A stretch of DNA of 64,000 bases, taken from NCBI GenBank assembly GCA_963744145.1, contig CAVUSO010000001.1:736001-800000 (forward strand). The letters run 5' to 3'. Source of the DNA: an uncultured cyanobacterium (lineage in GTDB: Bacteria; Cyanobacteriota; Cyanobacteriia; Cyanobacteriales; CAWUOF01). Of this stretch, positions 5,485 to 42,529 are shown one piece after another; position 1 is the stretch's first letter; the number at the start of each line of letters is the position of its first letter. The notes under the pieces were generated by a model. The model saw nothing but the letters and a program-made list of their open reading frames with translations, had not been told where the DNA came from and searched no databases. Position numbers and translations under genes: made by a program.

Positions 5485-5487
5485 TAA

Positions 5488-7094: not shown

Positions 7095-7158
7095 GGGGCG
7101 ATCGCACTTTTTACTATTTCAATTCTGTTGACCAGTTAACCTAAATTTGGAAGAATTT

Positions 7159-18709: not shown

Positions 18710-18976
18710 GTGATTAATAAACCTAAAATTGAACGAGATAAACTCATTAAATTTATCCATGAAATGCCTGACAATAATTTAGCTGAATTGGCGATTTTTA
18801 TTGATTATCTTCGCTATAAATCTAGTCAATCTCAAACAATAAAAGAAAGTGATTCTAGCTTTTTAATGTCTATTGCTGGATTCGGTACTTCTGGAGAAAC
18901 AGATATTTCTGAGCGAGATGAAGAAATTTTACAAACAGAAATTACTTCGATCCAGGGTTGTACCACTAATCCCTGA
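18710..18976 (+). CDS. DUF2281-like antitoxin
   Basis: GGAGG RBS before GTG; MPDNNLAELAIFIDYLRYK...DISERDEEIL. Confidence 0.6.
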   Translation: MINKPKIERDKLIKFIHEMPDNNLAELAIFIDYLRYKSSQSQTIKESDSSFLMSIAGFGTSGETDISERDEEILQTEITSIQGCTTNP

Positions 18977-19029
18977 TTGTCAATCTATCTAAAACAGCAC
19001 TCATAAAATACTAAGGAGATTGATAGACA

Positions 19030-19482
19030 ATGCCAACTAAAATTACAGGATCTCTCTACGAACAGGATTTTGCTTTATGGATCGAGGATGTGGCAGCAAA
19101 ATTAAAAGTACGAGATTTTGATCATCTTGATGTTGATCATCTGCTTGAGGAGATCGAAGCTTTGGGGAAATCACAAAAGCGGGAGGTGAAAAGCCGTTTA
19201 CAAACTTTACTGGCACATATTTTAAAACGGATGTATGTTGACAGTCCATTAGACTATAACGACTGGGAGCGAACCATCCGAGAACAGCGCAAAGAATTAA
19301 GACTTTTGTTTGAACAATCTCCCAGTTTGAAAGGATATTACACAGAAGTCTTTGAGAGCGTTTGGCAAGCAGCAATGTTGGAAGTCTAGGAAGAATATAA
19401 AAAGACAAAATTTCCTAAAGTTTGGCAGTTTAGTAGTGAGCTTGATAACGTCCTCAATAATATTTTTTGGCAGGGAGTATAA
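19030..19482 (+). pseudogene. DUF29 family gene with premature TAG at 19387-19389
   Basis: LYEQDFALW motif; the frame continues past the TAG as EEYKKTKFPKVWQF to TAA 19482. Confidence 0.8.
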
Positions 19483-19613
19483 AAACAAAAGTTATCCAGG
19501 TGAGGTATGGTTCTGGAACTATGGGGGAAAGTGGAAACGACGATCGCATTCTTCCCTTACCCTCATTCCCCTAAAAGCGATCGCAACCATATCGTTATTT
19601 TACCATTAAGATT

Positions 19614-20030
19614 ATGCCAGCAAAAGACACTTACCATAAAACTGTTAAAAATGCCTTAATTAAGGATGGTTGGACAATTACGCACGATCCTTTAAAATTG
19701 CAATGGGGGAAAAAAGACTTATATGTTGACTTAGGTGCAGAGAAACTGATTGCCGCCGAAAAAGAAAATTGTAAAATAGCAGTAGAAGTCAAAAGCTTTG
19801 TGGGTCGTTCTGAAATTGATGACCTGGAAAAGGCTTTAGGACAGTATGTTCTTTATCGTGATGTTTTGTCTAAACGAGAACCTGAGCGAACTCTGTATGT
19901 CGCAGTCCATCAGGACATTTTTAATGATTTGTTTACGGAGCCAATTGGCCAACTTTTATTAGACAACCACCGCATACAGTTGGTTATATTTAATCCCATA
20001 ACGGAGGTAATTTTGAGATGGATACCCTAG
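19614..20030 (+). CDS. xisH: XisH family protein
   Basis: MPAKDTYH..VKNALIKDGWTITHDP, IAVEVKSF, ALGQY. Confidence 0.92.
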   Translation: MPAKDTYHKTVKNALIKDGWTITHDPLKLQWGKKDLYVDLGAEKLIAAEKENCKIAVEVKSFVGRSEIDDLEKALGQYVLYRDVLSKREPERTLYVAVHQDIFNDLFTEPIGQLLLDNHRIQLVIFNPITEVILRWIP

Positions 20031-20353
20031 AACATTATCGGCAAATTATTGAGAAAGTTCTGACTGACTATGTAGCTGTTCCTTATGCTTATGGAGATAT
20101 TAAAGGACAGGTAGTGTTCGATCGCGATCGCGATTCCTATTTAATTTTAACCATTGGATGGGATGAAAGACAACGAGTGCATGGCTGTATCGTTCACCTT
20201 GATATTATTGATGGCAAAATCTGGATTCAGCGGGATGGAACCGAGGAAGGAATAGCCCTTGATTTAACAGAAGCGGGTATTCCCAAAGAACAGATAGTTC
20301 TAGGTTTTCGTCATCCTGATATGCGACAATATACTGAATATGCGATCGCCTAA
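20018..20353 (+). CDS. xisI: XisI family protein
   Basis: HLDIIDGKIWIQRDGTEEGIA...IVLGF. Confidence 0.92.
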   Translation: MDTLEHYRQIIEKVLTDYVAVPYAYGDIKGQVVFDRDRDSYLILTIGWDERQRVHGCIVHLDIIDGKIWIQRDGTEEGIALDLTEAGIPKEQIVLGFRHPDMRQYTEYAIA

Positions 20354-20405
20354 ATCAAGCAATATATTCAGCTTAATTCAATATTATATAGGAGATTGAT
20401 AGACA

Positions 20406-20858
20406 ATGCAAACTGAAACTAAAGTATCCCTCTACGAACAGGATTTTGCTTTATGGATCGAGGATGTGGCAGCAAAATTAAAAGCACGAGATTTTGATCA
20501 TCTTGATGTTGATAATCTGCTTGAGGAGATAGAAAGCTTGGGAAGAAGGGAACGACGGGAATTGAGAAATTGGTTAAGCGTGTTGATAGCTCATATCCTG
20601 AAGCGGATGTATGTTAACAGTTCTGAAAATTTTAATGGATGGGAAGTAACTATTATAGAGCAACGCCAACAAATTAAAGGATTATGGCAAGACTCTCCCA
20701 GTTTAAAACCTTACTTCATACAAATATTTACAGAAGTGTATATTGATGCTTTAGACATTGTTTCTGTTGAATATCAGCAAACAGAGTTTCCTAAAACCTG
20801 GCAATTTGAGCTTGAAATTGATATAATTCTATCTAAAAAATACTGGGAGCAGCAATAA
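20406..20858 (+). CDS. DUF29 family protein (intact, chimeric copy)
   Basis: 5' third matches the 19030 copy; the remainder matches the 14608 copy. Confidence 0.85.
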   Translation: MQTETKVSLYEQDFALWIEDVAAKLKARDFDHLDVDNLLEEIESLGRRERRELRNWLSVLIAHILKRMYVNSSENFNGWEVTIIEQRQQIKGLWQDSPSLKPYFIQIFTEVYIDALDIVSVEYQQTEFPKTWQFELEIDIILSKKYWEQQ

Positions 20859-20977
20859 ATGATTTCTAAGCAGCTCCGAATTATTACCGATGTGGGGAAA
20901 TTTTTCCAAGGAGTTTCCTTGATGACCGCGATCGCTCTCTATCCGCTATGTCAAAATTAGCAAAATCAGAGGTGATT

Positions 20978-21209
20978 ATGCCTTTTAGCACTTATAAAAC
21001 AATCAGTGCAGTTCTTAAAGAATTTCAAGTTACTTACATTGAAGCAAACTTGATTATAGAAGCTGAATTTAATATCTCTGACTATTTTCGAGAAGATTTA
21101 GAAATAGTGATGCAAGACGGTGCAGTGAACTATTCCGAATTTGCAATTTGTGAAAATCTGATTTATCCAGTGTTAAAGGAAGTTTGGAAGCAGTATCGCC
21201 ACAATTTTA
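20978..21209 (+). pseudogene. 5' fragment paralogous to 17961-18587, cut by an IS66 end
   Basis: MPFSTYK...VLKEVWKQYR is near-identical to the 17961 gene; similarity stops at GTAAGCGTTCA. Confidence 0.8.
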
Positions 21210-21359
21210 GTAAGCGTTCACGGAGTGGAAAAAGAAAGCAAAATACCCCCCAATGGAATTCCAGCAATTTTCAAGTAAATCGCCAGATCACAGCCGGACG
21301 AATAGCTCTTTCTGCCGCATTATTAGTGGGTTCAACCCCAACAGTAGTCACAAATAACC
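21210..21359 (-). mobile_element. IS66-family remnant (one end plus a transposase fragment)
   Basis: Minus strand encodes LFVTTVGVEPTNNAAERAIRPAVIW (IS66 TnpC motif); end sequence GTAAGCGTTCAC at 21210. Confidence 0.8.
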
Positions 21360-21420
21360 TGATAAAACTTGCCGCGGGGATTTTTTCATTTTGCATCTGG
21401 GGATTTGACTGTAACTAAGA

Positions 21421-23725: not shown

Positions 23726-25996
23726 ATGGGTATGGGATCTCACGATATAGCTTTACGAGTGATGCAAGAATCTGTAATGGTTTTAGCTACATGGACAAAT
23801 ATCAAATTGGACTTTCCAAAAATCCAAGAATCTGAAGCGGTAGAAAAAGCAAAAGATTATCTGAATTGGCCAAAAATGGGAGAAGATCAGATTCAACCTT
23901 TACGTCTACTATTCGACTTTGTTTATTTTCCTCAAGATGGGGGAAAGCAGACAAAACCAGAAAATTACTATCCTGTGTGTGCGATCGCCGATTCTGATCC
24001 TGTCATTCCCTATCCCTTAGAACAAAAACCTGATTTAACGGAGTACAAAAAACTTGTCAAAACTGAATTAGAAAGACTTAACTCAGCAGATTGGCAAAAC
24101 TTGCCACTTCTCAGCTTATTTATCGAAAAATATGGTTCTTGTCTGAGCTTTGGTGAATCAGATATTGCCTTAATTGATATGGCTCGATCTACCGCTGCGG
24201 TTGCTGCTGCTTTGGTCGATAATCCTGAAGCCGATCAAATTGCTTTAATTGCTGGTGACTTATCAGGAATTCAGAAATTTATCTACACTATTTCTTCTGA
24301 TGGTGCGCTCAAGTCGTTACGAGCGAGAAGTTTTTATTTAGAATTAGTTGCTGAGGAAATTGTCCAGCAGCTTTTATATAGTCTGAAATTGCCCCGTACC
24401 AGTGTTATCTATGCGGGCGGAGGAAATTTATATATATTAGCACCTGCGAATCAGAATACTAAAAACACTGTTGACCAATTACAATCAACTTTCAACCAAT
24501 GGTTGAAAAACAAATTTCAAAACAAAATATTTTTAGCACTTACTATTTCTGCTCCTTTTTCTGCTCAAGATGTAGCTACTAATCAATTTGCAGAACATTG
24601 GAATAACGCAATTAAAAAAGTTAATCAGCAAAAAAATCAAAAATTTATAAATCAAATTGATACTTTACTTAAAATTAAGGTAAGTTACGAACAAAAATGT
24701 CGGGTTTGTCATCGTGATGATACAACAAATTTAAAAGAATTTGAAAATGATGAAGGTGAGTTAATAGTCCAATGTCCAATTTGCAAAAAAATGGCTCAAT
24801 TGGGGAGCCAATTATTTCAAACAAAAGTGGTTGTAAGATCGCGTCGTAAAGACATACCAGGTAAATTAGGAAAAATCTCTTTTCAATTTGCTCACTATTA
24901 TCTTTTTGAGAATCAAGACAATTTGCCAGAATTACAAGAGGAAGAAATAGTATTATTTATAAATAATTGGGAGACTAAAAACTATCATTTTCAAAATTCA
25001 GTTTCTTTCTTTTTGGGTAACTATGGTAAAAAAAGTGAAGAAGAAGAACCAAAATTTATCCGAGCTAATGAAATGGCAAAAAAAGCAAAAGGGATTAAGC
25101 GAGTTGGTTATTTACGGATGGATGTAGACAACTTAGGTAAAATTTTTGCGAAAGGGTTAGGGAATAAGCACTCTTTACTTAGACTAACAGGACTTTCTCG
25201 TTTGATGACCTATTTCTTTAAAGTTTATCTGAATAGTTTGGCAAAAGATCGCTGTGCCAATTTACCCGAAGGAGCAAAAAGTTTAGACTCAGGCGATCGC
25301 CCAAATTTATTATTTATTTATGCAGGAGGTGATGATTTATTTATCAGTGGCTCTTGGAATGAAGTAGTAGACTTTGCTTTTGATGTTTATCAGTCATTTC
25401 GAGCATATACAGGCTATAATACTGATATTACTCTTTCCGGTGGAATCAGCCTAGCAGATTTCAAATTTCCTCTTTATCAAGCAGCAGATGAATCAGGGGA
25501 TGCTGAAAAAAAAGCTAAAGGAAATGGTCGAGATAGTTTAGGATTATTTGGAGAGGTGTTTAAATGGGATGAATGGCTTGGAATGAATAATGTGAACGCG
25601 ATCGCTTCGGAAACTAAAACTTATCTGAAGTCTGAAAATATGCCTAGCTTATTTGGTATCTTACCTCTTGTAAGACTCTACCATATAAACAATAATCATT
25701 CCCATAGCTTTGTCAGAAACCTACTGGTTACAGCTCAATTACAAGATCAAATGATTAAGGAGATTAAAGAAGAACGAAAAAACCGAGATTATATAGATCA
25801 AGAGCAAGATATTCGCTACTATTTACATTTACCCAAAATTGCTTATACTTTGGCACGACTTCCTAAACAAGTTCTGGATGATGATGAGTTTCGTAAGTCA
25901 TTAAAGAATCCATATAATGCACCTTATTTTCGGGCGATCGCCACTTGGATAGAATTACTTAACCGCAAGGAAAGCCATGACTCAAACAACAACTAA
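23726..25996 (+). CDS. cas10: Type III-A Cas10/Csm1
   Basis: GDLSGIQKFIY, LRARSFYLE, CRVC..CPIC zinc motif, RMDVDNLG, YAGGDDLF. Confidence 0.95.
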   Translation: MGMGSHDIALRVMQESVMVLATWTNIKLDFPKIQESEAVEKAKDYLNWPKMGEDQIQPLRLLFDFVYFPQDGGKQTKPENYYPVCAIADSDPVIPYPLEQKPDLTEYKKLVKTELERLNSADWQNLPLLSLFIEKYGSCLSFGESDIALIDMARSTAAVAAALVDNPEADQIALIAGDLSGIQKFIYTISSDGALKSLRARSFYLELVAEEIVQQLLYSLKLPRTSVIYAGGGNLYILAPANQNTKNTVDQLQSTFNQWLKNKFQNKIFLALTISAPFSAQDVATNQFAEHWNNAIKKVNQQKNQKFINQIDTLLKIKVSYEQKCRVCHRDDTTNLKEFENDEGELIVQCPICKKMAQLGSQLFQTKVVVRSRRKDIPGKLGKISFQFAHYYLFENQDNLPELQEEEIVLFINNWETKNYHFQNSVSFFLGNYGKKSEEEEPKFIRANEMAKKAKGIKRVGYLRMDVDNLGKIFAKGLGNKHSLLRLTGLSRLMTYFFKVYLNSLAKDRCANLPEGAKSLDSGDRPNLLFIYAGGDDLFISGSWNEVVDFAFDVYQSFRAYTGYNTDITLSGGISLADFKFPLYQAADESGDAEKKAKGNGRDSLGLFGEVFKWDEWLGMNNVNAIASETKTYLKSENMPSLFGILPLVRLYHINNNHSHSFVRNLLVTAQLQDQMIKEIKEERKNRDYIDQEQDIRYYLHLPKIAYTLARLPKQVLDDDEFRKSLKNPYNAPYFRAIATWIELLNRKESHDSNNN

Positions 25997-26546
25997 AGCT
26001 AAACTCACTTTTGAAGAATACCTCAGCTATGACGATGGTACAGATAACCGCTATGAATTGGAAGATGGAGAATTAATTTTAATGAACCTACCAACATTTC
26101 ATCATGCTTTCATTATTAGATTTTTGGCAAATAAGTTTGAGTCAGAAATTACGCGGCTTAATTTACCTTGGCTGACGTTGCAGGGTATAGGAGTCAGAAC
26201 ATCGATCAATCGCTCTAGGATTCCCGATTTATGCGTAATTACCCGCGAACAAATTTTAGAAAACCTTGACGTACCCGCAGTCATTGAATCTGCTGCATTG
26301 CTAGCAGTGGAAATTGTCAGTCCTGAATCCAAAACTAGAGATTATCGGTTTAAACGTTCTGAATATAGTGTAGTGGGAATTCCTGAATATTGGATTGTCG
26401 ATCCAGCCGAGCAAAAAGTTACTGTTCTGAATTTAGTGGAGGGATTTTATGAACAGATAGAATTTCGAGGAAATGAGAGAATTGTTTCTCAGACTTTCCC
26501 CGAATTGGTGTTAAATTTAGAACAGGTATTGCAAAGCAATTTTTAA
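25977..26546 (+). CDS. Uma2 family endonuclease inserted in the III-A operon
   Basis: RYELEDGEL, RIPDL, AVEIVSP, KRSEY..GIPEYWIVDP. Confidence 0.9.
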   Translation: MTQTTTKAKLTFEEYLSYDDGTDNRYELEDGELILMNLPTFHHAFIIRFLANKFESEITRLNLPWLTLQGIGVRTSINRSRIPDLCVITREQILENLDVPAVIESAALLAVEIVSPESKTRDYRFKRSEYSVVGIPEYWIVDPAEQKVTVLNLVEGFYEQIEFRGNERIVSQTFPELVLNLEQVLQSNF

Positions 26547-26576
26547 CAGAACTTAAGATATTAACCAGGAATAAAT

Positions 26577-27035
26577 ATGGGACCAGAAGATAAACACTCT
26601 AAACCTATACCGAAGATAGATGATGATATTGTAGCAGTAATGGTCAACAAGATTGATAACTTGAAATTGGGCTTAAAAGAGTATAAAATTCGCGACTTAG
26701 TTGACCATACAGAAAAGCTAGGAAAAAAACTCGCTGATAATGGCTTAAAAACCAATCAAATTCGCAAATTTTTAGATGCTGTCAACCGTTTTAAGATTAA
26801 ACAAACGGGCAAATCTGAACTTTCCGAAGAAAGTCAAGATGAATTACACATCTTAAGATACCAATTAGCCTATGCTGCGGCTCGACAGCAAAAGGTAGTC
26901 GAACCTTTAAAAAAAGTCTTAGAAGTAGCGATTAAACAAGTAAAAGGGAAGGAGTTAGAAAACTTTAACCGTCTTGTTCAACTTATTGAATCAGTAGTTG
27001 CATATCATAAAGCAGCAGGAGGAAAAGACCAATGA
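26577..27035 (+). CDS. csm2: Csm2 (Cas11) small subunit
   Basis: LKTNQIRKF, LAYAAAR, ESVVAYHKAAGG. Confidence 0.93.
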   Translation: MGPEDKHSKPIPKIDDDIVAVMVNKIDNLKLGLKEYKIRDLVDHTEKLGKKLADNGLKTNQIRKFLDAVNRFKIKQTGKSELSEESQDELHILRYQLAYAAARQQKVVEPLKKVLEVAIKQVKGKELENFNRLVQLIESVVAYHKAAGGKDQ

Positions 27036-27988
27036 CCATATCAACGATTGATAAACCCCAGAGACAATTACTCGGAAAGCTTCACTTTAAAAGTATTATC
27101 TTAGTTGAAACTGGACTTCATATTGGAGGAGGTAGTGAAACTTTAAACATTGGTGGACTCGATAAACCTGTTATACGCGATCCAATTACTCGGCACCCCT
27201 ATTTACCTGGTTCATCAATTAAGGGAAAACTGCGTGCGATTTTAGAAAGGTTACTAAACAAACCTCTAAATCGACCCGGTGGTAGCGGAACTTATCGCTA
27301 TGAAAGCGGTGATTTAGTTGATGGAATTGTAGAACTAGGCGGACAATATATCAATTTTCAAGGTGCAAGAACTTGTGAATTATCACGCATTTTTGGTTCT
27401 ACAGGAGTAAAATGTTATATTGAAACAGAGATCGCTCGTCAAGAGGGGTTACTTGATAATAAGAGTGAGAAAAAGTTGATCAATAACAAAGAATATGTCA
27501 ATGTTATAGGTCGTAATTTCCCAGGACGATTAATTGTCAGGGATGCTCATTTAGAGGAAGATTCAGCCAAACAACTAGAAAATATTGATACTGGTTTGTA
27601 CATGACTGAATGGAAGTTTGAAAATGGAATTGATCGCATCACAGCACTAGCCAATCCCAGACAAGTAGAGCGAGTTCCCAAAGGAGCAAAATTCAAGTTT
27701 GAGCTGGTTTATACTGTTGAAGAGGCTAGTCAAGCACTAGAAGATTTGAGGAATATTCTTCGTGCAGTTTTAGTTTTAGAAGATGATGCTTTAGGTGGAC
27801 ATGGTTCTCGCGGTTACGGAAAAATTAAGTTTCAAAATCTAGATTTTTGTTATCGAGATTATGCAGGAATTCACAAAGCAGGAAGTGGTGTACTCAGTTT
27901 ACCATCATCAAATAAAGTATCAGAAATTAATGATACTACGCAGTTACCAGATAAATTTAATGAAATTCAGAAACTTTTACCAAGGTAA
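27032..27988 (+). CDS. csm3: Csm3 RAMP backbone ribonuclease
   Basis: TGLHIGG...IGGLDKPVIRDP (catalytic Asp position), PGSSIKGKLR, LGGHGSRGYG. Confidence 0.95.
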   Translation: MTISTIDKPQRQLLGKLHFKSIILVETGLHIGGGSETLNIGGLDKPVIRDPITRHPYLPGSSIKGKLRAILERLLNKPLNRPGGSGTYRYESGDLVDGIVELGGQYINFQGARTCELSRIFGSTGVKCYIETEIARQEGLLDNKSEKKLINNKEYVNVIGRNFPGRLIVRDAHLEEDSAKQLENIDTGLYMTEWKFENGIDRITALANPRQVERVPKGAKFKFELVYTVEEASQALEDLRNILRAVLVLEDDALGGHGSRGYGKIKFQNLDFCYRDYAGIHKAGSGVLSLPSSNKVSEINDTTQLPDKFNEIQKLLPR

Positions 27989-27996
27989 AGCAAAAA

Positions 27997-29040
27997 ATGA
28001 GTGAGTGGAAATTATTTAAGCTGAAATTTGGACGCACTCCCGTTCACTTTGGCGAATTGGGAATTGGGATGGAAGAAACAAGCGATCGCATCCACTCAGA
28101 CACGCTATTTAGTGCTTGGGTGAGTGCTTACGCTCGGTTATTCGGGCAAATTGCTGTTGAGGAACTATTGCAAAAATTCCAGAATGAAAAAGAACCACTA
28201 TTTCGATTGAGTTCTACTTTTATCTATCAGCAGATCGACAAGAAAACTATTTATTATTTACCTCGTCCTTTCAAACGTCCAATAAACTATCCAGAGCAAG
28301 ATTTTGAATTTGCTAAAGAGTATAAAAAACTGAATTACTTACCCTTGGAAGTATGGCAACGTTGGTATCAAGGGGAAGGATGGATAAATACGGATCAACA
28401 AGAACTTGAAGCTAAAGCTAAAAAGAGAGAAATCCAGCCTAGAAAACTGAAAGAAGTAGGTACTTTTGATTATAGTGAAGCGGTCAAAAAGAGTAAAGTT
28501 CCTAAAATTGCAGTCGATCGCATTACCAGAGCAACTAATCTCTACCACACGACATTTGTTCAATATCAAGAGAATGCAGGTTTATATTTTCTGGTTCAAT
28601 TCCATGACACAGAATTTGAACATAAATTTTTGAGTGTCTTAAACTTTCTAGGTGATGAAGGAATTGGTGGTGAACGTTCTAGCGGTGCAGGACAATTTGA
28701 GGTTGAATCTGGCGAAATTTCTGATTGGCAACAACTGATTAAGTTTGATCAGGGAAATTTGTATAGTTTGATCAGTTTATTTTGGGAAAATCCTCTTGAT
28801 CCTGACTTGCTAGCTCAAGAATCTAGTTATGAATTACTGCGTCGAGGGGGATGGATTTCCTCTTCTCCTTCAGGAAATCAGCGTCGTCGTAAGTCAGTAC
28901 AAATGTTTGCTGAAGGTTCAGTTTTTCCAGTTAAACCTAAAGGTAAGCTTGCTGATGTAACACCCGAGCATTTTCAAGCTCATAGTGTTTATCGCAGTGG
29001 GATTAGTTTGAGTTTACCAATTAAAGTATTAGTTGAGTAA
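27997..29040 (+). CDS. csm4: Csm4 RAMP
   Basis: HFGE, IHSDTLFSA, GIGGERSSGAG. Confidence 0.95.
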   Translation: MSEWKLFKLKFGRTPVHFGELGIGMEETSDRIHSDTLFSAWVSAYARLFGQIAVEELLQKFQNEKEPLFRLSSTFIYQQIDKKTIYYLPRPFKRPINYPEQDFEFAKEYKKLNYLPLEVWQRWYQGEGWINTDQQELEAKAKKREIQPRKLKEVGTFDYSEAVKKSKVPKIAVDRITRATNLYHTTFVQYQENAGLYFLVQFHDTEFEHKFLSVLNFLGDEGIGGERSSGAGQFEVESGEISDWQQLIKFDQGNLYSLISLFWENPLDPDLLAQESSYELLRRGGWISSSPSGNQRRRKSVQMFAEGSVFPVKPKGKLADVTPEHFQAHSVYRSGISLSLPIKVLVE

Positions 29041-29044
29041 AATT

Positions 29045-30331
29045 ATGATTTCTACTTCTGAAGATGCTCTGGTAAAACCAGAGATTTACGAAACAAAACG
29101 CATTCATCTTACCAGTCCAATTCTGCATATAGGTTCGGAAGTTTCTAAACTCAGTCCGTTTGAATATGTACAAACCGATAGTCAAGTTTACCTACCAAAC
29201 CAGGAAGCTTTAGCTAAAGCATTATACCAAAGAGGAAAGTTACAGGAATATATTCACAGACTTGAAAATCGACAAGAAATTACTCCTTTGTTAAAAGAAG
29301 CGTTTGGAGATAATTGGCAAAATGAAAAACTTAATGGAGCAGCGATTTTTCCCAAAACTAAAATTAGTCATAAGTGGACAGCAGAAAAAATTACCGATTT
29401 ACGTCCAATGATTCGCAATGGATTCGGACAACTATATATTCCCGGTTCTTCAATTAAGGGTGCTATTCGGACAGCGATCGCTTATCATTTGCTCACCCAT
29501 CCCAATCAATATAATCTTCCCTCCTCTGTTCGAGTGAGTGAAATAGAGAAAAAATTGAGAGAAAAAATTAAAACAGGAGAAATCGCTCGGAAAGCTAAAC
29601 AAATAGCTCTTGACGATCAACTGTTTATGGATTCTCTATTCACTGAATTTGAAATCGCCGATCGAGACAATCTAAAATTTGGGCCGAATACTGATTTTAT
29701 GCGAGCAATCAAAGTGACGGATTCTCAGCTTTTACTAGAGAAAACTAAAACCATTAAAGAAGGCAAAAAAATAACAGTTAACTCACCAATAGTAGCTGAA
29801 GTAATGGTTTCTAGTAAACTAGCTGATCACAAAGCAAAATATCGGGCGTCTATTTATGCTGAAATGGTAAGAAATGTCAGCACGACCTTTACCATCAGCT
29901 TAGACCAAAAAATGTTAGACAGTTTTCATCATATTCAAGGATTAAAAATTCCTTTTCAAAATATTGATGAACTCTTAAGAATTTGCCAAGAATTTGCTCA
30001 ACATCAGTGGGACGCTGAACATGATTACTGGCAAGATATTAAAGATAATCATTATCAAGAAAAAAATTTATACTTTGAAGCAATTCGTGAATTTTATGAA
30101 ACTATTAAATCTCCTTACAGTTTGCGGTTAGGTTGGGCTAGTGGAATGAGAGGTACTACAGTTAATTTATGTCTCAGTGATGAAGTAGTTGAACAAATTC
30201 GGGATAACTGTGGTATTATGGCTCCTGGGTTTGAAGCACCTAAATCTAGACGTACAGTAATTAACAATAAAGGAGATGTTAAGTTTCCTCTTGGATGGGT
30301 AAAATTTAATATGTTAAAAGGTGTCGTTTAG
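29045..30331 (+). CDS. csm5: Csm5 RAMP
   Basis: LHIGS, YIPGSSIKGAIRTA, LRLGWASG, PLGWV. Confidence 0.93.
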   Translation: MISTSEDALVKPEIYETKRIHLTSPILHIGSEVSKLSPFEYVQTDSQVYLPNQEALAKALYQRGKLQEYIHRLENRQEITPLLKEAFGDNWQNEKLNGAAIFPKTKISHKWTAEKITDLRPMIRNGFGQLYIPGSSIKGAIRTAIAYHLLTHPNQYNLPSSVRVSEIEKKLREKIKTGEIARKAKQIALDDQLFMDSLFTEFEIADRDNLKFGPNTDFMRAIKVTDSQLLLEKTKTIKEGKKITVNSPIVAEVMVSSKLADHKAKYRASIYAEMVRNVSTTFTISLDQKMLDSFHHIQGLKIPFQNIDELLRICQEFAQHQWDAEHDYWQDIKDNHYQEKNLYFEAIREFYETIKSPYSLRLGWASGMRGTTVNLCLSDEVVEQIRDNCGIMAPGFEAPKSRRTVINNKGDVKFPLGWVKFNMLKGVV

Positions 30332-30370
30332 TTTCATCATCAGAAATTTAGTAGGAGCATGATAAAAACA

Positions 30371-31765
30371 ATGATAAATTATATTAAAAAATTAGAAGTA
30401 GTAGGTCTTCATCATCGATTTGATATCATCCAAGATTTTTATCCCAATACACAAATTATATTTGGTGAAAATGGCACAGGTAAAACAACATTACTTCATA
30501 TTTTAGCTAATTTATTAAATGCTGACTATCGGCGTTTTTTTGCACTTGATTTCAATCACATAAAAGCCATTATGGATGATGAAACAATTTTAAAGATACG
30601 CAAAGCAGATTATCAGCCAGAAAATAACACATATAATAGTCTCATTGTACAGTCAAGTAAAGCAAGAAGTAGATTGTCAATCTTAAAAGAAAGCCAAGAA
30701 AATGATTACGAGTTGCAAAGCTGGAATCGACGACACTATGGATCTTTACTACCAGTAGTTTATTTTCCAGCTTTTAGAAACATTATAGAAGCTTGGGCTA
30801 TGGTAGAAAATCGTAAAAATAAATATGAACTAGATAAAGTTAGAGAACAAGAAATTACTGAATTTGTTCGCAATGTCTACGGTCAATTTACTCCCCAAAT
30901 AAATTATCCATCACCTGTGGAAATTGAACAAGAACTGGTGCATGAAATGAAACAAGCAGGGGATCGAGTCTTTGAAAGCGATCGCCAAGTTTTAGATCAA
31001 AGTTTTATCGATGTATTTTCCCAATTATCCCCCGCTACTTCCCATATTAATGAGGATCTAAATAACCCGAACGAAATTATCCAAAACATCAAAAAACTTT
31101 CAGAAGAAATTAATAATTATCCATTCCAAAAAGCTGCTGTGTTAGGTGGAGGTATTTACTCAATTCAGAATATATTGAAATCAGTAGCATCTAACCAACA
31201 TGAACTCAAGCTTGCTACTGAAATCTTAGGTGTCTATCAGGATTCATTAGAAAAAATGTTTCAAATTAGAAAGGAGTCTTTTGTAAAGATTAAGCAGTAT
31301 TTGGATGCGGTCAATTATTTTTTAAAAGGAAAAGAGCTAATGACTGAAGTCCAAGGATTTAATGAAATATTTGTTGGGTTAAAATTTGATGATGCTTTTT
31401 CCCTAAGAGGTTTTAGTGGTTTGTCATCAGGTGAACGTCAAATTGTCACGCTGATCTATGCTGTTAATCGCATGAATAAACAAAAACTTGTCTTGATAGA
31501 TGAACCTGAAATATCTCTTCATGTTGACTGGCAAAGGGAACTTCTTAAGACAATTTCTAAACAGTCTTCAGATTGTCAAATTATTGTTTGTACTCATTCA
31601 CCAGTTATTGCTGGAGATTACGATGAATCTATGACTGAGATTAACTTAACTCCAACTAATAAGCAATTATGGATTGATGATAGCATTGATAGAGATGACT
31701 TTCCCTATTCAGAAGATGAAGATGATGTAATGGATTCTGATGAATTTCAAGAAACTGACGAATAA
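30371..31765 (+). CDS. ABC-type (AAA_15/AAA_21) ATPase, AriA/PARIS-like, with acidic tail
   Basis: Walker A GENGTGKT, signature LSSGERQ, Walker B/D-loop LIDEPEISLH, H-loop CTHS; start could be 30359. Confidence 0.85.
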   Translation: MINYIKKLEVVGLHHRFDIIQDFYPNTQIIFGENGTGKTTLLHILANLLNADYRRFFALDFNHIKAIMDDETILKIRKADYQPENNTYNSLIVQSSKARSRLSILKESQENDYELQSWNRRHYGSLLPVVYFPAFRNIIEAWAMVENRKNKYELDKVREQEITEFVRNVYGQFTPQINYPSPVEIEQELVHEMKQAGDRVFESDRQVLDQSFIDVFSQLSPATSHINEDLNNPNEIIQNIKKLSEEINNYPFQKAAVLGGGIYSIQNILKSVASNQHELKLATEILGVYQDSLEKMFQIRKESFVKIKQYLDAVNYFLKGKELMTEVQGFNEIFVGLKFDDAFSLRGFSGLSSGERQIVTLIYAVNRMNKQKLVLIDEPEISLHVDWQRELLKTISKQSSDCQIIVCTHSPVIAGDYDESMTEINLTPTNKQLWIDDSIDRDDFPYSEDEDDVMDSDEFQETDE

Positions 31766-31785
31766 AAACAGGATGATTTTTGTTT

Positions 31786-32916
31786 ATGGCGATTTCTAAC
31801 TATACGCAACAGGACTACTTGAACTATATACAGTTCAGTAAAAAGAAACACTTGTTAGTAGAGGGAGTGACTGATAAACGAATTTTTAATCTGCTTTTTG
31901 ATGAATGGGAACAGAAACAGAAAAATAATATTAATCTAGTAAACCTAGAAGTACAGATAGATACTGCTGAAGGTTTGAACTTTATTGATGTACCCCGAAA
32001 TTGCGATCGCGTCAAGGCAATTTGCCAAAGTATTGAAACTAAACCCTATAATTATAAGTTAGTGGGTTTTATCGATCGAGAGTTTAATGAATTTGCATAT
32101 AGTTCTTCTTTTGAAGACAACCTAAAAGGACATAAAGTAGAAGGTAGACTTGTATGGTCAAGAGGACATTCTATTGAAAATTACTTTTTTGAATACTCAA
32201 TCCTTCGCGAACATTTTCGGGGTCTAGCTCTAGACTATTTTAGTGAAGCATTGGAAGTTTTCAGTAGTCAATTTCTAGAATCTATTCTGAAAATAGCTTG
32301 TGCTGTTACTCTTGCTAGTAAAGAAATTGGCAAAATTCAAAAAATTGAAGATAGAATCATTCAAGATTTTTTTCAAATAATTAATAATGAATTTCTGATA
32401 AAGTTAGAATTTTTTAAAGAAAACTTAATTAAAAGTAAGAATGATTTTACTCTAGAAGAAGCTGAAGAATTCTACAGAGAATATATTAATTTTCAAGATA
32501 AAATCACATTATTTAAAGATCCACAAATTATTAGATGGCTTTGTCATGGTCATATAGGTATAAAATTAATATGCTTAAGTTATGATTTATGTATTGATGA
32601 GTTGGCAAAACATTTTGAAAAATATGCTAGAGAATTATACAATAATTTTCAAGCCATAATCACATTATTTAAAGATTTGCAAATTATTAGATATCTTTGT
32701 CGTAGTTGTGTAGGTATAAAATTAATATGCCTAAGCTATGATTTATGTATTGATAAGTTAGCAAAATGTATTGATGATTTAGAGAATAAAATATATATCA
32801 AAACAAAGGAACTTATTAAAATCAATGGTATTGCTAACATTTGGGCTGTAAAAGCACTTGATGGAAAATGTGAATATCCTCAAGAAATTTTTCAATTATT
32901 GGGAATTGATACTTAA
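31786..32916 (+). CDS. DUF4435/TOPRIM-like protein, AriB/PARIS-like
   Basis: LLVEGVTD, GFIDREF, GHSIENYF and LCHGH motifs; directly downstream of the ABC ATPase. Confidence 0.7.
   Translation: MAISNYTQQDYLNYIQFSKKKHLLVEGVTDKRIFNLLFDEWEQKQKNNINLVNLEVQIDTAEGLNFIDVPRNCDRVKAICQSIETKPYNYKLVGFIDREFNEFAYSSSFEDNLKGHKVEGRLVWSRGHSIENYFFEYSILREHFRGLALDYFSEALEVFSSQFLESILKIACAVTLASKEIGKIQKIEDRIIQDFFQIINNEFLIKLEFFKENLIKSKNDFTLEEAEEFYREYINFQDKITLFKDPQIIRWLCHGHIGIKLICLSYDLCIDELAKHFEKYARELYNNFQAIITLFKDLQIIRYLCRSCVGIKLICLSYDLCIDKLAKCIDDLENKIYIKTKELIKINGIANIWAVKALDGKCEYPQEIFQLLGIDT
32488..32774 (+). repeat. 156-bp-period in-frame duplication in the DUF4435-like gene
   Basis: NFQ..ITLFKD.QIIR.LC....GIKLICLSYDLCID.LAK occurs twice. 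Confidence 0.9.
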
Positions 32917-32942
32917 TTTTTTTATTAATCCAGTTATTGCTT

Positions 32943-33710
32943 ATGCTGATTCGTTCAACTTGGACACTAAAAGTACAGGAATCGACAAGTCTACCCCGAT
33001 CGCACGGTTTAGAACTTACTAAACTACTGCATCAAAAACTAGGTTGGGACATCGGTAATGAAAGAATTCCTTCAACAACCTATTCTGGTTTGCTAGGATA
33101 TTATATAGGAAATGGGGATTTTCTGACATTTTTGCCAGAGGAAACTTATCAGCTTTCTCTCAGTGGTTTACACCGAGAAACTGCTCAAGCGATCGCATCT
33201 TTGGACCTATCTTCTGGGTTAGAGTTTTTGGGGGTAAAATTTGAAGTCTGCGATCGCCAAGACAAAATCACCAGCTACGAGGAACTTTATACTACTTTAG
33301 TTGCTAACGAACCAGAACCAGTTCATCGCTTTAATTTAAAATTTATTACTCCCACAGCTTTTGCTCAACAAAAAATTCACTTACCATTACCAGTTCCCAG
33401 TTTAATGTTTCGCAATTGGTTAGAAAGATGGAATGAATTTGCACCAGTTTATTTAGGAGGGGATGAACTAATTGGGTATTTGGAGAATACAGTGGTGATT
33501 AAATCGCACCAAATCAAAACGCGATCGTTTCAACTATCGAGAGGGTACATCAATGGATTTATTGGTAATGTAAATTTACAAATTCCTTACCGAATAGATG
33601 CTTTACTGGTAAATGTAGCTAATTTATTGATTCAGTATAGCCAGTATTCAGGTACGGGAATCAAAACCCGTTTAGGAATGGGACAGACTATGATAAGGAA
33701 TGAAAACTAA
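32943..33710 (+). CDS. cas6: CRISPR precursor-processing endoribonuclease Cas6
   Basis: FITPTAF, PLPVP, C-terminal YSGTGIKTRLGMG loop. Confidence 0.93.
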   Translation: MLIRSTWTLKVQESTSLPRSHGLELTKLLHQKLGWDIGNERIPSTTYSGLLGYYIGNGDFLTFLPEETYQLSLSGLHRETAQAIASLDLSSGLEFLGVKFEVCDRQDKITSYEELYTTLVANEPEPVHRFNLKFITPTAFAQQKIHLPLPVPSLMFRNWLERWNEFAPVYLGGDELIGYLENTVVIKSHQIKTRSFQLSRGYINGFIGNVNLQIPYRIDALLVNVANLLIQYSQYSGTGIKTRLGMGQTMIRNEN

Positions 33711-33875
33711 ATAACTTGATGATTTATTGTAGTAAGCACCAAGAGCGCTCTCATCGCTTTTAATTTCTATTTTTAAGTTTATTCTCGACGTGAAATCAAC
33801 CTTGATTTTGTCAGGGAGTTGAAAAAATAAAAATTACCAGTTAAAATAAGAACAGATTAAATCAATGAACAAATT

Positions 33876-37192: not shown

Positions 37193-37531
37193 TTAGCCTA
37201 GCGCAAACTCTGTGTACTGTCGCACATAAGGTGCATAATAGGCTAGTACAATTTCCTGTTTCGGCACACCCAGGGCTACTAATTGATCAGCGATCGCTTC
37301 TTCTGTTCCATCATGTTGCACCCAAATTTTTCCATCTTTAATATCAACATGAAGTATACAACCATAGATCCGAGTAGTGCTGTCCTTCCAACCCACATTT
37401 ACCAGCTGATAGCGATCGCTGATCGGATCAAAAATTGTTTCGCTGACAACCGGATCATGAGGTGAGCGTCGGTTGGCTCGTTGAGTCAGTAAGTCCTGAA
37501 TATACTGACGATATAAACTTATTTTATCCAT
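37193..37531 (-). CDS. xisI: XisI family protein
   Basis: HVDIKDGKIWVQHDGTEEAIA...IVLAY. Confidence 0.9.
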   Translation of the reverse strand: MDKISLYRQYIQDLLTQRANRRSPHDPVVSETIFDPISDRYQLVNVGWKDSTTRIYGCILHVDIKDGKIWVQHDGTEEAIADQLVALGVPKQEIVLAYYAPYVRQYTEFALG

Positions 37532-37726: not shown

Positions 37727-39139
37727 ATGCTAGTTCAATTCACAATAGAAAATTTCCTATCATTTAGGGAAGCAAAGACCTTTAGTATGCTAGGTGTGAA
37801 CAATGATCTGAATCATCTAGAGCATCTGGGAGTGAATCTAGCAGGTAAAGGGAAGTCTCTTCTACCTGTTGCTGGTATTTATGGTGCAAATGCAGCGGGC
37901 AAATCTAACCTCATTAAAGCCATTGATTTTGCAAAGGATTTAATCGTTGAAGGAACCCGTAGTGGACAATCTATCCCTGTTTCCCCATTCAAATTAGGTG
38001 ATTACAGTCAGAAACCTAGCCAATTTGAATTCATATTTACTTATCAAAACACGCTTTATTCATACGGGTTTAAGCTTAATTCCAGCCAAATATTAGAAGA
38101 GTGGCTTTATGGCACTCCTCCTGAAAAAAAGAGAGAGATACTTTACTTTGAACGAACTACTTCTGAGCAGAAAGAAACCATAGTAGAATATGGAGCAACC
38201 CTCAGAGGTAGAGGTGAAAATAATAAGCAGTTTCTCGATTTTATTAGCAAAGGAACTCGCTCTAACCAACTCTTTTTAACGGAAGCTGTAGAACGCAATG
38301 TTAACCTATTAATACCTATTTTTGACTGGTTCAAAAAAGTTCTGACTATAATTCCGGCTGAATCTGATTATACAGATTTAGAAATTGGCATATTAGGCAG
38401 CATAGAATTTACTACTTTTCTGAGCGACTTTTTAAAATTTGCTGGTACAGGGATTGATTCGATCGGATTAGATGAAGTCACACTTGATTTTGATTCTCAC
38501 TTTCCAGAGATGCCCAAAAGTATGCGTGAGAAACTTAACCAGCAACTTGCTGAAGCTGGTGCAAATTCTGTTGTAATGATTGAGAATTCTCTCAGAAAAA
38601 AAAGATATCTTTTGATGAAAGGAGAACAAGAGAAAATAAATTTAATGCAGATTAAAACTAAACATCGCCATGAAAACGGTCAACTTGTCGATTTTTCAAT
38701 CGATGAGGAATCAGAAGGAACACAACGTTTAATTAATCTAATTCCAGTTCTATTTGTTTTAAGGAAAAATCCTGAGAAAGTTATATTGCTAGATGAACTT
38801 GATCGTCGATTACATCCTTTATTATCACGTCAATTTTTGGAGTTTTTTCTACAATGCAAAACGGAAAATAGTAGAAGTCAGCTAATTTTTACAACTCATG
38901 ACAGTAACTTACTTGACTTAGATATACTACGTCGAGATGAAATTTGGTTTGTCGAAAAAAATCAGCAGGGAGTTTCACATCTTTACTCCTTAGCAGAATT
39001 CAAGATTAGACCTGATCTCAAAATTGAGAAAGGATATTTGAATGGTCGATTTGGAGCGATTCCATTCTTTGGTGATATTCACAGTTTAGGTTGGGTCGAT
39101 TGTCAAGCAGAACCTGCTATTAGGATCACAAAGGTTTGA
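37727..39139 (+). CDS. AAA_21 ATPase (RloA/AbiEii-like)
   Basis: IYGANAAGKSN, ESEGT, DELDRRLHP, QLIFTTHD, YLNGRFGAIP. Confidence 0.88.
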   Translation: MLVQFTIENFLSFREAKTFSMLGVNNDLNHLEHLGVNLAGKGKSLLPVAGIYGANAAGKSNLIKAIDFAKDLIVEGTRSGQSIPVSPFKLGDYSQKPSQFEFIFTYQNTLYSYGFKLNSSQILEEWLYGTPPEKKREILYFERTTSEQKETIVEYGATLRGRGENNKQFLDFISKGTRSNQLFLTEAVERNVNLLIPIFDWFKKVLTIIPAESDYTDLEIGILGSIEFTTFLSDFLKFAGTGIDSIGLDEVTLDFDSHFPEMPKSMREKLNQQLAEAGANSVVMIENSLRKKRYLLMKGEQEKINLMQIKTKHRHENGQLVDFSIDEESEGTQRLINLIPVLFVLRKNPEKVILLDELDRRLHPLLSRQFLEFFLQCKTENSRSQLIFTTHDSNLLDLDILRRDEIWFVEKNQQGVSHLYSLAEFKIRPDLKIEKGYLNGRFGAIPFFGDIHSLGWVDCQAEPAIRITKV

Positions 39140-40144: not shown

Positions 40145-42529
40145 ATGTCTAAACTAATTATGTCTCTTCTTAGTCGTCGCCATTTTCTTGGTCATGTGGC
40201 TTTAGCTACTTTTGGATTGCTGACAAAAGACTTTCTTTATCCAGTTAGTGCTAGAGCTAATAGCGAGGGATTAGTCAAGAGTTCTGATATCTTAGAAAAG
40301 TATCATATTTGTGTTCCTTATATAACGGCGCTGCGGGGGGGTAAACAAACAGTACCTCTCCGTTCAGGAGATAATTTTGAGATAAAAATTTCTCCTCGAA
40401 CTCAAGAGAATCAGGAGATTACTATTAAAGGGTATGGTCAAGATGGTAAAGATATGATTGTAGTCTTCCATACCTTATACGATCAACAACTTAGAGTAGC
40501 GGATCAAGTTTATCAAGAAATTGACAAACATACGGAATTTTTTGAACAAGCAAGTAAAGCTAAATGTAAATCAGTGTACGAGCAAGTTGAAGATGGTCAA
40601 TATATTGACAATATGATCTCATTAGACTTGTTAGATTATGTGATATCCACTTCAAAGCTAGATAGCAAAATTAAAGAGCGTTACCAAATTGCCAGCACTA
40701 ATTCGCGTCTGATCGGAATTCAGGAAAGTATTGAATCTACATTAGCTAAATCTAAATTGACTGAATCAGACAAAAAACTGCTTAGAGGAACTTACGCTTA
40801 TGTCCGAGCTGGTGAACCAGTTCCTAATTTTAAAGCACTGACAGACATTGACTCAATTGTGACTAACTCAACCCTACCATTAGAAATTCAGCGGAGTTAT
40901 TTTTTAGCTAGTGCCAAATCAAAAGCGTTAACGGTTGACTTTATTATTGTTAAACTGATTAACGACAGCCAACAACTGAACTCCGAACAAAAGACACTTT
41001 ACCTATCAATTTATCAACAGGTCCGCGATGGCAAGACAGTTGAGGATGAAGCAAATTTAAAGTCCCTAGACTTATTCATAAGAAATGCTAAAATTTCAAA
41101 AAACGCTAAAATTGTTTACTCAATCGCCAGAATAAATAATTTAGATAACCAAGAAGATTTTGCCAAAAATGTAGTTGGTTTTGTGCAAGATGCTCAAACA
41201 TTTCAAGAGCAGCTAGAGGACATTAAAGGCCAAGGATTTGCTATTATTCCACAAGCTACTAAAATCCTGAGTACACTGGGAGCAGAAGCAGGAACAGGTG
41301 TCAGTATTAGTAGTTTGTCTGGAGCAGCTGCTACCAACGCAACTTTAGCCGTTTTAGGTGGTGGTTCAGTTGCAGCAGGTGGTTTAGGAATGCTGGGTGG
41401 ATTAGCAGTAGCAACAGGAGGAGCAGCACTAATTGGAGCTGCTGGATTGTTGTCGATTGCGTTAGTCCAGGAAATGGACAGCGAAGATCGAAAGAATTTA
41501 GGGATTGCAATTGGTACAGGAACCATAGCTGGTGCTGCTACGGTTTTAGGTGCTTGGACTGCTGCTAGTGCTTTGGGAGTAGCAGGCACATTGTCCGGTG
41601 CTGCTGCTATTACTACTACCATCTCGGCTCTTGGTGGACTCAGTATACTTACTGGTGGTGCTGCGCTGGTTGCATCAGGTACAGCATTTTTAATTTGGTC
41701 ATTGTTGCAAGGACAAAAGCAACGAGATCAGTCCTTATTGCATCAATTAGAAACTCGAACTTACACCTATACTGAAGATATAATTTCAAGTAATGTGGGC
41801 TCATTTATCCAAAAAGATATCGGCCAAAAATACAGTTTAGCTAATGCCTTTTATGCTCCTAATATTCCCTTGGATAAGCTATCGAATTCTTTATCTAAAT
41901 GGCTAGATATTGATTCAAACGAAAAGGTAATCGCTTTAATCGATACGAGTGGATGGTTTGGTACTTACGGTGCTGTTTTTACTGAAAGTCGGCTCATCTG
42001 GACAAATAACTTGATCAACTATGAAGATTTAGTCAGGTTTTTCAAGAGGGAAACAGAATTAGCCTTATTGTTATCTGACCAAAACCAGATGACAAAATTG
42101 TCTAATTTGAAAGAGGTAGTAGATATTTTATCTGATGATAATTATAAGTCAGATCTATCTAAGTTGAAAAAATTAGTTGACATATTATCTAATTACCCAG
42201 ATATAAAGCCACTTCTATTAGACGATAGGTATAGGACCCAATTAACTAAATTGAAAGATATAATATATATATTTTCTGATGATAATTACCAAAGAGATTT
42301 GTACAAATTAAAAGAGGTAGTAGATAGTCTATCTGATCATGAAAATAACTTAGTAATCTTTTTAGTAATCTTTTTATCACCGGAATTAGTCTCACTAATA
42401 TCTGATGATAATTACAAACAATACTTATCTAAGTTAAAAGATTTAATCTATACCTTATCTTATCAAAGTATCCAAGATTCTTTGATGCAAATGCTTCGAG
42501 AACTTGGTCAAAGATATAGCTATGTTTAG
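40145..42529 (+). CDS. Tat-signal protein with DnaJ-C-like segment, glycine-zipper membrane region and C-terminal helical repeats
   Basis: SRRHFL twin-arginine motif; GAAATNATLAVLGGGSVAAGGLG; repeated LSKLKEVVDILSDDNY. Confidence 0.75.
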   Translation: MSKLIMSLLSRRHFLGHVALATFGLLTKDFLYPVSARANSEGLVKSSDILEKYHICVPYITALRGGKQTVPLRSGDNFEIKISPRTQENQEITIKGYGQDGKDMIVVFHTLYDQQLRVADQVYQEIDKHTEFFEQASKAKCKSVYEQVEDGQYIDNMISLDLLDYVISTSKLDSKIKERYQIASTNSRLIGIQESIESTLAKSKLTESDKKLLRGTYAYVRAGEPVPNFKALTDIDSIVTNSTLPLEIQRSYFLASAKSKALTVDFIIVKLINDSQQLNSEQKTLYLSIYQQVRDGKTVEDEANLKSLDLFIRNAKISKNAKIVYSIARINNLDNQEDFAKNVVGFVQDAQTFQEQLEDIKGQGFAIIPQATKILSTLGAEAGTGVSISSLSGAAATNATLAVLGGGSVAAGGLGMLGGLAVATGGAALIGAAGLLSIALVQEMDSEDRKNLGIAIGTGTIAGAATVLGAWTAASALGVAGTLSGAAAITTTISALGGLSILTGGAALVASGTAFLIWSLLQGQKQRDQSLLHQLETRTYTYTEDIISSNVGSFIQKDIGQKYSLANAFYAPNIPLDKLSNSLSKWLDIDSNEKVIALIDTSGWFGTYGAVFTESRLIWTNNLINYEDLVRFFKRETELALLLSDQNQMTKLSNLKEVVDILSDDNYKSDLSKLKKLVDILSNYPDIKPLLLDDRYRTQLTKLKDIIYIFSDDNYQRDLYKLKEVVDSLSDHENNLVIFLVIFLSPELVSLISDDNYKQYLSKLKDLIYTLSYQSIQDSLMQMLRELGQRYSYV

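Follow-up and report, generated by a model that had tools for sequence, protein, structure and literature searches.

A PARIS defence pair nested in the type III-A CRISPR operon of a cyanobacterial lineage

What is an ATPase–nuclease gene pair doing inside a type III-A CRISPR operon, in the interval between csm5 and cas6, and does it work for that system or only alongside it? We analysed a stretch of 64,000 nucleotides (nt) from an uncultured cyanobacterium (contig CAVUSO010000001.1, positions 736,001 to 800,000; hereafter the window, in whose own numbering window coordinates are given), in which such a pair, ariA–ariB, occupies positions 30359–32916. PARIS, the two-gene system formed by the ABC ATPase AriA and the TOPRIM nuclease AriB, has so far been studied as a system standing on its own, borne by phages and satellites. 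A preliminary description of the window had called the pair PARIS-like. Homology and predicted fold carry the assignment further, and indicate that it is a true PARIS and belongs to a distinct cyanobacterial PARIS sub-lineage whose members lie embedded in related type III-A loci.

The ariA gene (30359..31765, + strand, ATG start, 468 amino acids (aa)) lies directly upstream of ariB (31786..32916, + strand, 376 aa) on one strand, as in PARIS. AriA scores well above the Pfam cut-offs for AAA_21 (76.8 bits, cut-off 27) and AAA_15 (66.0 bits, cut-off 32.1), matches the PADLOC AriA models (2.5e-30, 3.9e-22 and 2.5e-19) and aligns full-length with solved AriA in a phmmer search of the Protein Data Bank (PDB; 8ux9_B/8v45_A, E 1.2e-63, residues 6–434 vs 3–443), where the runner-up family is GajA at 1e-08. 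The protein carries the Walker A motif GENGTGKT, the signature LSSGE, the Walker B motif LIDEPE and the H-loop CTHS, and its ATPase residues K42, S357, D381, E382 and H413, compared with E. coli AriA through K39 (the Walker A Lys) and E393, are retained in 13/13 embedded AriA proteins. E. coli AriA residues F230, F234, F238 and Y304 are tied to assembly of a trimer of dimers, or hexamer (Burman 2024, PMC11464382); three of these four aromatics are conserved in the phmmer alignment as F216, F220 and Y293, and S224 replaces F238.

AriB has the motifs VEGVTD, FIDREF and HSIENY, the cyanobacterial clade being about 22% identical to the solved protein. A single-sequence phmmer search of the PDB finds solved AriB (8ux9_A) at E 5e-22, and a family profile of 43 sequences matches it full length at E 6.7e-56 (positions 1–320 vs 1–307). 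An AlphaFold2 model with a predicted local distance difference test (pLDDT) score of 87 recovers 8ux9_A in Foldseek (E 3.4e-16, TMt 0.84) and 8v46_D (TMt 0.86), with the third match at E 0.36, leaving AriB as the only significant match of the predicted fold. The TOPRIM metal-binding residues of E. coli AriB are E26, D30, D88, E90 and E122 (Burman 2024, PMC11464382), and the acidic TOPRIM residues of the window protein, E26, D30, D97, E99 and E131, are kept without exception across the 43 aligned sequences, as well as in 13/13 embedded AriB proteins. A large protein collection holds 166 relatives at E ≤0.001; among the best 120 of these, most are about 320 aa long and several are named DUF4435 by their source. 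Because homology is full-length, the AriB fold matches and the catalytic residues are invariant, we assign the pair to PARIS proper.

Standard models would miss this assignment. Profile searches, proposed earlier as a check, recover AriA through AAA_15, AAA_21 and PADLOC, but fail for AriB, whose homology emerges from the family profile and the fold instead: window AriB has no match to Pfam DUF4435 (PF14491) even at E up to 10, nor to the PADLOC AriB model PDLC02983. PF14491, on which the original PARIS detection rule relied, matches 10 of the 43 family members, and PDLC02983 finds 40 of 43. Judged by the profile and fold matches, these misses are a failure of the models on this particular sequence and not of homology, and since window AriB escapes both, automated annotation would not call PARIS in this genome. 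Searches with Pfam, NCBIfam and PADLOC found no CARF, SAVED or other cyclic-oligoadenylate (cOA) sensor domain in AriA or AriB. The same genome carries a second, stand-alone PARIS (G000:C1:7257414-7261722). Its ariA is intact and 39% identical to that of the window; an insertion of about 1.9 kb interrupts its ariB and carries, on the opposite strand, a 421-aa open reading frame (ORF) that weakly matches a DDE transposase (E 0.001).

The operon around the pair is complete. The ORF listing gives a single tightly packed gene row on the + strand (23726–33710), beginning with cas10/csm1 (23726..25996, 756 aa; Pfam Cas10-Cmr2_palm2 5e-41 and Csm1_B 4e-32, PADLOC Cas10 9e-115), which retains the cyclase motif GGDD at residues 534–537. 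It is followed by a Uma2-family (PD-(D/E)XK-like) gene (25977..26546; Pfam Uma2 3.4e-33, PADLOC PDC-S03 3e-78), which overlaps the cas10 stop by 20 nt, and then by csm2 (26577..27035; Pfam Csm2_III-A 6e-30), csm3 (27032..27988; PADLOC Csm3 5.6e-68), csm4 (27997..29040; PADLOC Csm4 6.6e-61, Pfam Csm4_C), csm5 (29033..30331; PADLOC Csm5 6.7e-30), ariA, ariB and cas6 (32937..33710; Pfam CRISPR_Cas6 2.7e-18, PADLOC Cas6_IIIa 4e-23), all on the + strand. Pfam and PADLOC thus place a full type III-A effector module, Cas10 with GGDD, Csm2, Csm3, Csm4, Csm5 and Cas6, on either side of the pair, in agreement with the embedding claimed from the letters alone. The likely cas6 start is the ATG at 32943, which reads MLIRS like its homologues, these aligning from residues 1–3; ariB starts at the ATG at 31786 after an aggatg-type ribosome-binding site, with a TTG at 31780 (378 aa) as the alternative. 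The gaps are 27 nt from csm5 to ariA, 20 nt from ariA to ariB (14 nt with the TTG start) and 20–26 nt from ariB to cas6.

The earlier observations that genes for an ABC ATPase and for a TOPRIM-type protein lie between csm5 and cas6 on one strand with short gaps, and that the interval lacks an obvious terminator, were both confirmed, by ORFs, flanking genes and motifs for the former and, for the latter, by a consensus-match scan that found no terminator-like hairpin between csm5 and cas6 (30331–32937). The same scan places a terminator-like hairpin directly 3′ of cas6 (33741..33761, + strand), the likely end of the operon; promoter-like matches occur at about the shuffled level (62 vs 47.4, sd 6.8) and are hence uninformative. 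Given the short gaps, the common strand and the lack of a terminator-like site before cas6, ariAB would be read from the csm transcript, and we infer that they are transcribed together with the csm genes, with cas6 downstream. Both HIP1 sites (GCGATCGC) reported earlier are present, at 30978..30985 in ariA and 32003..32010 in ariB, and the motif occurs 45 times in the window against 0.22 expected by shuffling. A k-mer CRISPR finder and a repeat search agree that the window holds no CRISPR array. Arrays are many elsewhere in the genome, the nearest lying about 60 kb past the window end (G000:C1 860258–875628, about 208 repeats), and its repeat family recurs at 2336636–2347293 and 4811439–4823595.

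The preliminary description had raised the prospect that the insertion was unique to this strain, and it is not. We surveyed AriB relatives in one genome per species, searched the resulting 48 loci with the window Cas proteins, and found ariA–ariB between csm5 and cas6 in eight: those of Nostoc punctiforme NIES-2108, Microcoleus asticus, a Pseudanabaena plasmid, an Oscillatoriales metagenome-assembled genome (MAG), a Pseudanabaenales MAG, Anabaena FACHB-1237, Nostocales LEGE 11386 and Xenococcus PCC 7305. In one more, a Leptolyngbyaceae MAG, ariAB sits just after cas6. Another, Calothrix sp. NIES-3974 (L047), has in its csm5–cas6 interval (9845–10300) a fused ariA-5′/ariB-3′ gene, a 151-aa ORF joining the first ~40 residues of AriA to the last ~90 of AriB, a remainder left by an internal deletion within the PARIS cassette. 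Relatives of the window Cas proteins were absent from the other 38 of the 48 loci, of which three are AriB fragments and some lie on contigs too short to judge. Intact embedded PARIS is present in 13 species genomes besides the window, four of them beyond the species-genome survey, and in metagenomes Csm or Cas6 neighbours accompany 13 of 80 loci (11 of the 53 with enough flank to judge). The after-cas6 position is seen in L013 and L180. Around the ten closest stand-alone PARIS loci, by contrast, Pfam found no Cas family in 49 flanking ORFs (the nearer of the 91 picked, with L014 and L035 left out), and housekeeping or other defence genes lie there instead.

How unusual is it for this junction to be filled at all? 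A Csm5 search of two samples of 400 cyanobacterial genomes yielded 56 III-A-clade loci in 54 other genomes. In 41 of the 56, csm5 lies within 75 nt of cas6, and in three the gap is 131–265 nt; intact ariAB occupies the junction in seven and an ariAB remnant in one, a 427-aa Ser/Thr kinase-TPR gene in one (L059, 2785–4068), and a 125-aa GIY-YIG gene with a 78-aa ORF in one (L057, 1045–1422 and 834–1070, minus strand), with the junction cut by a contig end in the remaining two. Embedded PARIS is therefore a minority state among related III-A loci. In staphylococcal-type III-A loci csm6 lies between csm5 and cas6, and the interval had been called the csm6 slot here too; with csm5 abutting cas6 in most loci and Csm6/CARF-HEPN-like genes lying after cas6, that name does not hold, and the csm5|cas6 junction is better described as a variable cargo slot. 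A second such position lies upstream, where the cas10|csm2 junction is occupied by Uma2 in 7 of 25 related loci, whether PARIS is present or not (the window, L005, L006, L009, L021, L121 and L122). The operon thus has two cargo positions that vary independently of each other. The window has five further Uma2 genes around the operon.

The related loci also bear on the idea that PARIS replaces a cOA effector. In a flank scan covering 51 of 71 picked ORFs, Csm6 HEPN genes or an ORF of about 420 aa follow cas6, and Csx3, Card1-like and WYL genes lie upstream. The conserved ~420-aa ORF (L001 11811–13079, L011 11871–13133, L020 11832–13088 and L047 11113–12348) has only sub-threshold CARF (Csx1_CARF, Csa3_N) and HEPN matches and is probably a divergent Csm6/Csx1-type effector. 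The window itself has a Card1-like CARF protein and Csx3, and related loci have Csm6 HEPN, Csx3 or Card1; we therefore reject replacement of the cOA effector by PARIS. With conventional cOA effectors nearby, PARIS would not be needed as a type III effector.

How, then, did the pair come to lie here? In a tree of AriA+AriB (13 embedded pairs, 25 stand-alone pairs and a proteobacterial outgroup), the embedded pairs form one clade with a Shimodaira–Hasegawa-like approximate likelihood-ratio test (SH-aLRT) support of 93, which disfavours recurrent independent capture of different PARIS lineages. Among ten embedded loci, identities range over 0.29–0.74 for AriA+B and 0.52–0.82 for Csm4+5, and the two sets of pairwise identities rise together (Spearman 0.76 over 45 pairs, 0.80 without two near-copies; Mantel r 0.94, with 0/5000 permutations as high). 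PARIS presence maps onto a Csm4+5 tree of 29 loci, a set enriched for PARIS by the way it was gathered, with nine changes, at least seven of them forced by well-supported branches, and is no more clustered there than shuffled labels. Close relatives can differ in state, L011 having PARIS and L062 lacking it. The simplest reading would be one old capture into the csm5|cas6 junction, followed by inheritance with the cassette at roughly twice the Csm rate of change and by many losses, of which the Calothrix remnant may be one caught midway.

Taken together, we think it likely that the pair is an autonomous PARIS layer, co-expressed with the Csm genes, working on its own and dispensable for Csm. 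Dispensability is suggested by the 41 of 56 loci without an insert, the forced changes on the Csm4+5 tree and the Calothrix remnant. In E. coli B185 the AriA hexamer holds AriB inactive, and the triggers are acidic, DNA-mimicking anti-defence proteins (Burman 2024, PMC11464382). By homology with that system, a hexamer of window AriA would sequester inactive AriB until an ATP-dependent encounter with a phage-made protein released it; freed AriB would then dimerise and cut host tRNA, stopping translation and aborting the infection. One cassette would in this way supply both RNA-guided adaptive immunity and an innate layer sensing proteins of phages, the two being co-expressed and co-transferred.

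Several observations weigh against this account of an anciently captured, independently working and intact PARIS. An earlier concatenated tree of ten embedded pairs gave the same clade with support of only 39; the tree of AriB alone is unresolved and does not recover one clade (five changes, at least two forced); and the trees are quick searches assessed by SH-aLRT only, with long branches and compositional heterogeneity flagged. The AriB of L002 groups with that of embedded L001, yet no cas6 comes after it, and a contig end truncates its upstream side. At the salt-bridge interface, where E. coli AriB R28/R31 meet AriA D401/E404, window AriB has V28, K31 and R32, and window AriA keeps the Asp but has Arg at the E404-aligned position and Glu one residue later, so that binding between the two proteins at this locus is something we infer by analogy. 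Window AriB also contains an in-frame internal tandem duplication (copy 1 32481–32618, copy 2 32637–32774, + strand; 138 nt, 84% identical, offset 156 nt or 52 residues) that is unique to it, facing a gap in 42/42 aligned homologues. Finally, two AriA features set the embedded clade apart: a basic residue (R) at column 101 and a Trp ahead of the C-terminal tail (W438), each shared by 8 of 9 embedded representatives and by none of the 22 stand-alone ones. Together with a longer, more acidic tail, they could reflect a conserved partner specific to the clade.

Those AriA features lead to the strongest of the alternatives, namely that the embedded lineage has specialised in guarding type III immunity, its AriA detecting either a conserved factor directed against type III systems (an anti-CRISPR, a ring nuclease or a cOA sponge) or the state of the Csm complex, and freeing AriB for an abortive fallback once CRISPR interference is blocked. 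This PARIS lineage forms a single clade known so far only beside Csm genes, it has long co-diverged with Csm4+5, and ariAB is placed inside the predicted transcription unit. Column 101 belongs to an R-R-G-like motif (K101-A102-R103 in the window) adjoining the segment aligned with the central-pore loop of the E. coli protein, and pore residues are reported to be poorly conserved and probably tuned to triggers (Burman 2024, PMC11464382). The motif is hence a lead towards a shared trigger, though shared descent can explain it too, as it would the other clade-specific residues. A very acidic AriA C terminus had been noted and is present as quoted, 54 residues long in the window, but stand-alone tails are acidic as well; acidity is a trait of the whole PARIS family searched, and we reject a reading of the tail as a CRISPR-specific device. 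What distinguishes embedded tails is degree, with a median length after the H-loop of 54 residues (47–59) vs 40 (22–48) in stand-alone proteins and a median net charge of -12 vs -7. The stand-alone AriA proteins of L016, L018, L022 and L031 (Microcystis, Pannus and Crocosphaera) end in D-x-I-P-F/L after the acidic run, an end that we take to resemble the C-terminal tip of bacterial SSB.

Against such wiring stand the at least seven losses of PARIS from otherwise intact operons and the lack of clustering of its presence on the Csm tree, the after-cas6 position in L013 and L180, by which adjacency to csm5 is not required, and the unrelated kinase-TPR and GIY-YIG cargo that fills the same slot elsewhere. 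In the preliminary description the pair was proposed as a guard or an alternative effector responding to anti-CRISPRs, to Cas10 products or to depletion of nucleotides, and our analysis lends this no direct support, given the repeated loss of PARIS and the CARF effectors present. We regard a wired guard as unlikely. A broader version is unlikely to the same degree: cas10|csm2 and csm5|cas6 would be true cargo slots that gain and lose defence genes, and one PARIS lineage, confined to csm5|cas6 and marked by the basic motif near the pore, the Trp and the lengthened acidic tail of its AriA, would have resided there long enough to become wired, sensing an anti-type-III factor or a stalled Csm complex and firing tRNA cleavage when adaptive immunity is subverted. 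A single transcript would then tie an innate guard firmly to an adaptive system.

Less probable again is that AriA and AriB are a selfish or stabilising passenger, a toxin–antitoxin-like pair hitch-hiking in a permissive junction of a mobile cas cassette and kept by addiction or linkage. The PDB depositors of 8v45 named AriA an 'antitoxin', embedded locus L005 lies on a plasmid, the junction takes other cargo too, and the G+C content of ariAB (0.28–0.33) is below that of the csm genes (0.36–0.385). In Microcoleus asticus (L004), a 31-nt copy of the 5′ end of cas6 lies left of ariA, between it and csm5 (30/31 identical; score 52 vs a shuffle maximum of 25). Direct repeats at about 8460–8500 and 11045–11080 flank the PARIS cassette in this locus, and its left junction resembles an empty site; the repeat is the signature of an insertion or recombination event and provides a substrate for excising the cassette precisely, and thus a route to precise loss. 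Flanking direct repeats were not found in the eight other PARIS-bearing loci, so that only one in nine shows them, nor in L013, L047, L057, L059, L107 or L110. Frequent clean loss speaks against strong addiction, AriB alone is reported to be only mildly toxic (Burman 2024, PMC11464382), and retention of the catalytic residues in 13/13 pairs down to about 30% identity implies selection on activity.

Marginally the least probable alternative is that the window copy is crippled, the 52-residue duplication in the C-terminal helical domain of AriB blocking dimerisation or AriA loading while PARIS decays in this strain: the duplication is unique among the 43 aligned proteins, copy 2 lacks the family-invariant W/G/H, the linker (residues 304–329) is modelled at pLDDT <50, the PADLOC AriB model misses this protein and the second PARIS of the genome is broken too, but the frame is still open despite 16% DNA divergence between the copies, copy 1 is intact and has the family-invariant RWLCHGHIG motif, no catalytic residue is lost, and elsewhere the model is confident and can be superposed on solved AriB.

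Beyond the operon, the window holds further defence-related genes. A second type III module (5–17529) comprises a Cas10-like protein of 544 aa and several RAMP proteins, with DUF29 genes interspersed; with it lie the Card1-like CARF nuclease (7147–8511), Csx3 (5550–6467), a WYL protein (4012–5484, minus strand) and a TPR-CHAT protein (5–1942). Small DUF29, XisH and XisI genes flank the III-A operon (18653–21418 and 37193–37531). An AbiLi-like AAA_21 ATPase (37727–39139; PADLOC AbiLi 9e-93) is followed by a 794-aa ORF without a family (40145–42529) that has internal repeats of 57–144 nt at 42069–42465; no TOPRIM partner of this ATPase was seen.

A whole PARIS sub-lineage appears to have been resident within another immune system's operon in several cyanobacterial families. 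Should the two systems only be co-expressed, the locus would offer a clean natural example of layered immunity in one package for joint transfer, and would show that cas operons can have internal cargo slots like mobile-element hotspots. Should they be wired, the locus would be, to our knowledge, the first case of an innate phage-protein sensor guarding type III CRISPR, and would point to cyanophage anti-type-III proteins as triggers. Natural pairs of close relatives with and without PARIS in the operon, such as L011 and L062, allow a direct test of both readings.

The pair had been put forward as the best candidate for an undescribed system, but PARIS is known, and only its nesting in a cas operon lacks a description in the literature searched, where we found none of PARIS or DUF4435 inside a type III operon, though it may be listed in the supplements to Shah 2018, Shmakov 2018 and Burman 2024. 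Because PADLOC recognises most relatives, large surveys probably hold embedded loci uncommented. The closest known system is PARIS of E. coli B185 (Rousset 2022, PMC9122126; Burman 2024, PMC11464382; PDB 8ux9, 8v45–8v49), which shares with the window pair the adjacent ATPase-then-TOPRIM genes, full-length homology, the AriB fold, the catalytic and ATPase residues and, by alignment, three of four hexamer-contact aromatics. It differs in that the window pair is nested in a type III-A cas operon rather than a phage or satellite hotspot, belongs to a separate cyanobacterial clade, has V28/K31 for R28/R31, and carries a longer AriA tail and the AriB duplication. The OLD family (Gabija GajA, retron PtuA and P2 Old) shares the logic of an ABC ATPase with a TOPRIM domain, and gives weak Walker B/signature and OLD TOPRIM matches, but these are local and at least 50 orders of magnitude weaker than those to AriA/AriB, and in the window the domains are on separate proteins as in PARIS.

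As to the setting, staphylococcal III-A loci likewise have an accessory gene in the csm5–cas6 interval of a cas10-csm2-csm3-csm4-csm5-cas6 operon, whereas the cyanobacterial occupant has neither CARF nor HEPN, the interval is usually empty and Csm6-like genes come after cas6. In crenarchaea, Cas_RecF (cluster 17) and cluster 83 adjoin III-A cassettes (Shah 2018, PMC6546367), a comparable case of an ABC/SMC-type ATPase that, with a small partner, is conserved next to or inside type III cassettes; the protein family and host domain are different, the main text reports no TOPRIM partner, and it does not name PARIS or DUF4435, on which its supplements may differ. The P2/P4 defence hotspots (Rousset 2022, PMC9122126) resemble the csm5|cas6 junction as fixed junctions between conserved genes with alternative defence cargo, including PARIS; the cyanobacterial junction, flanked by csm5 and cas6, differs in lying inside the operon of another immune system, and its observed cargo comprises PARIS, a Ser/Thr kinase-TPR protein and a GIY-YIG protein. 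PARIS and the III-A parts are thus each known, and what is new is their conserved nesting, the embedded PARIS clade and the behaviour of the junction as a cargo slot.

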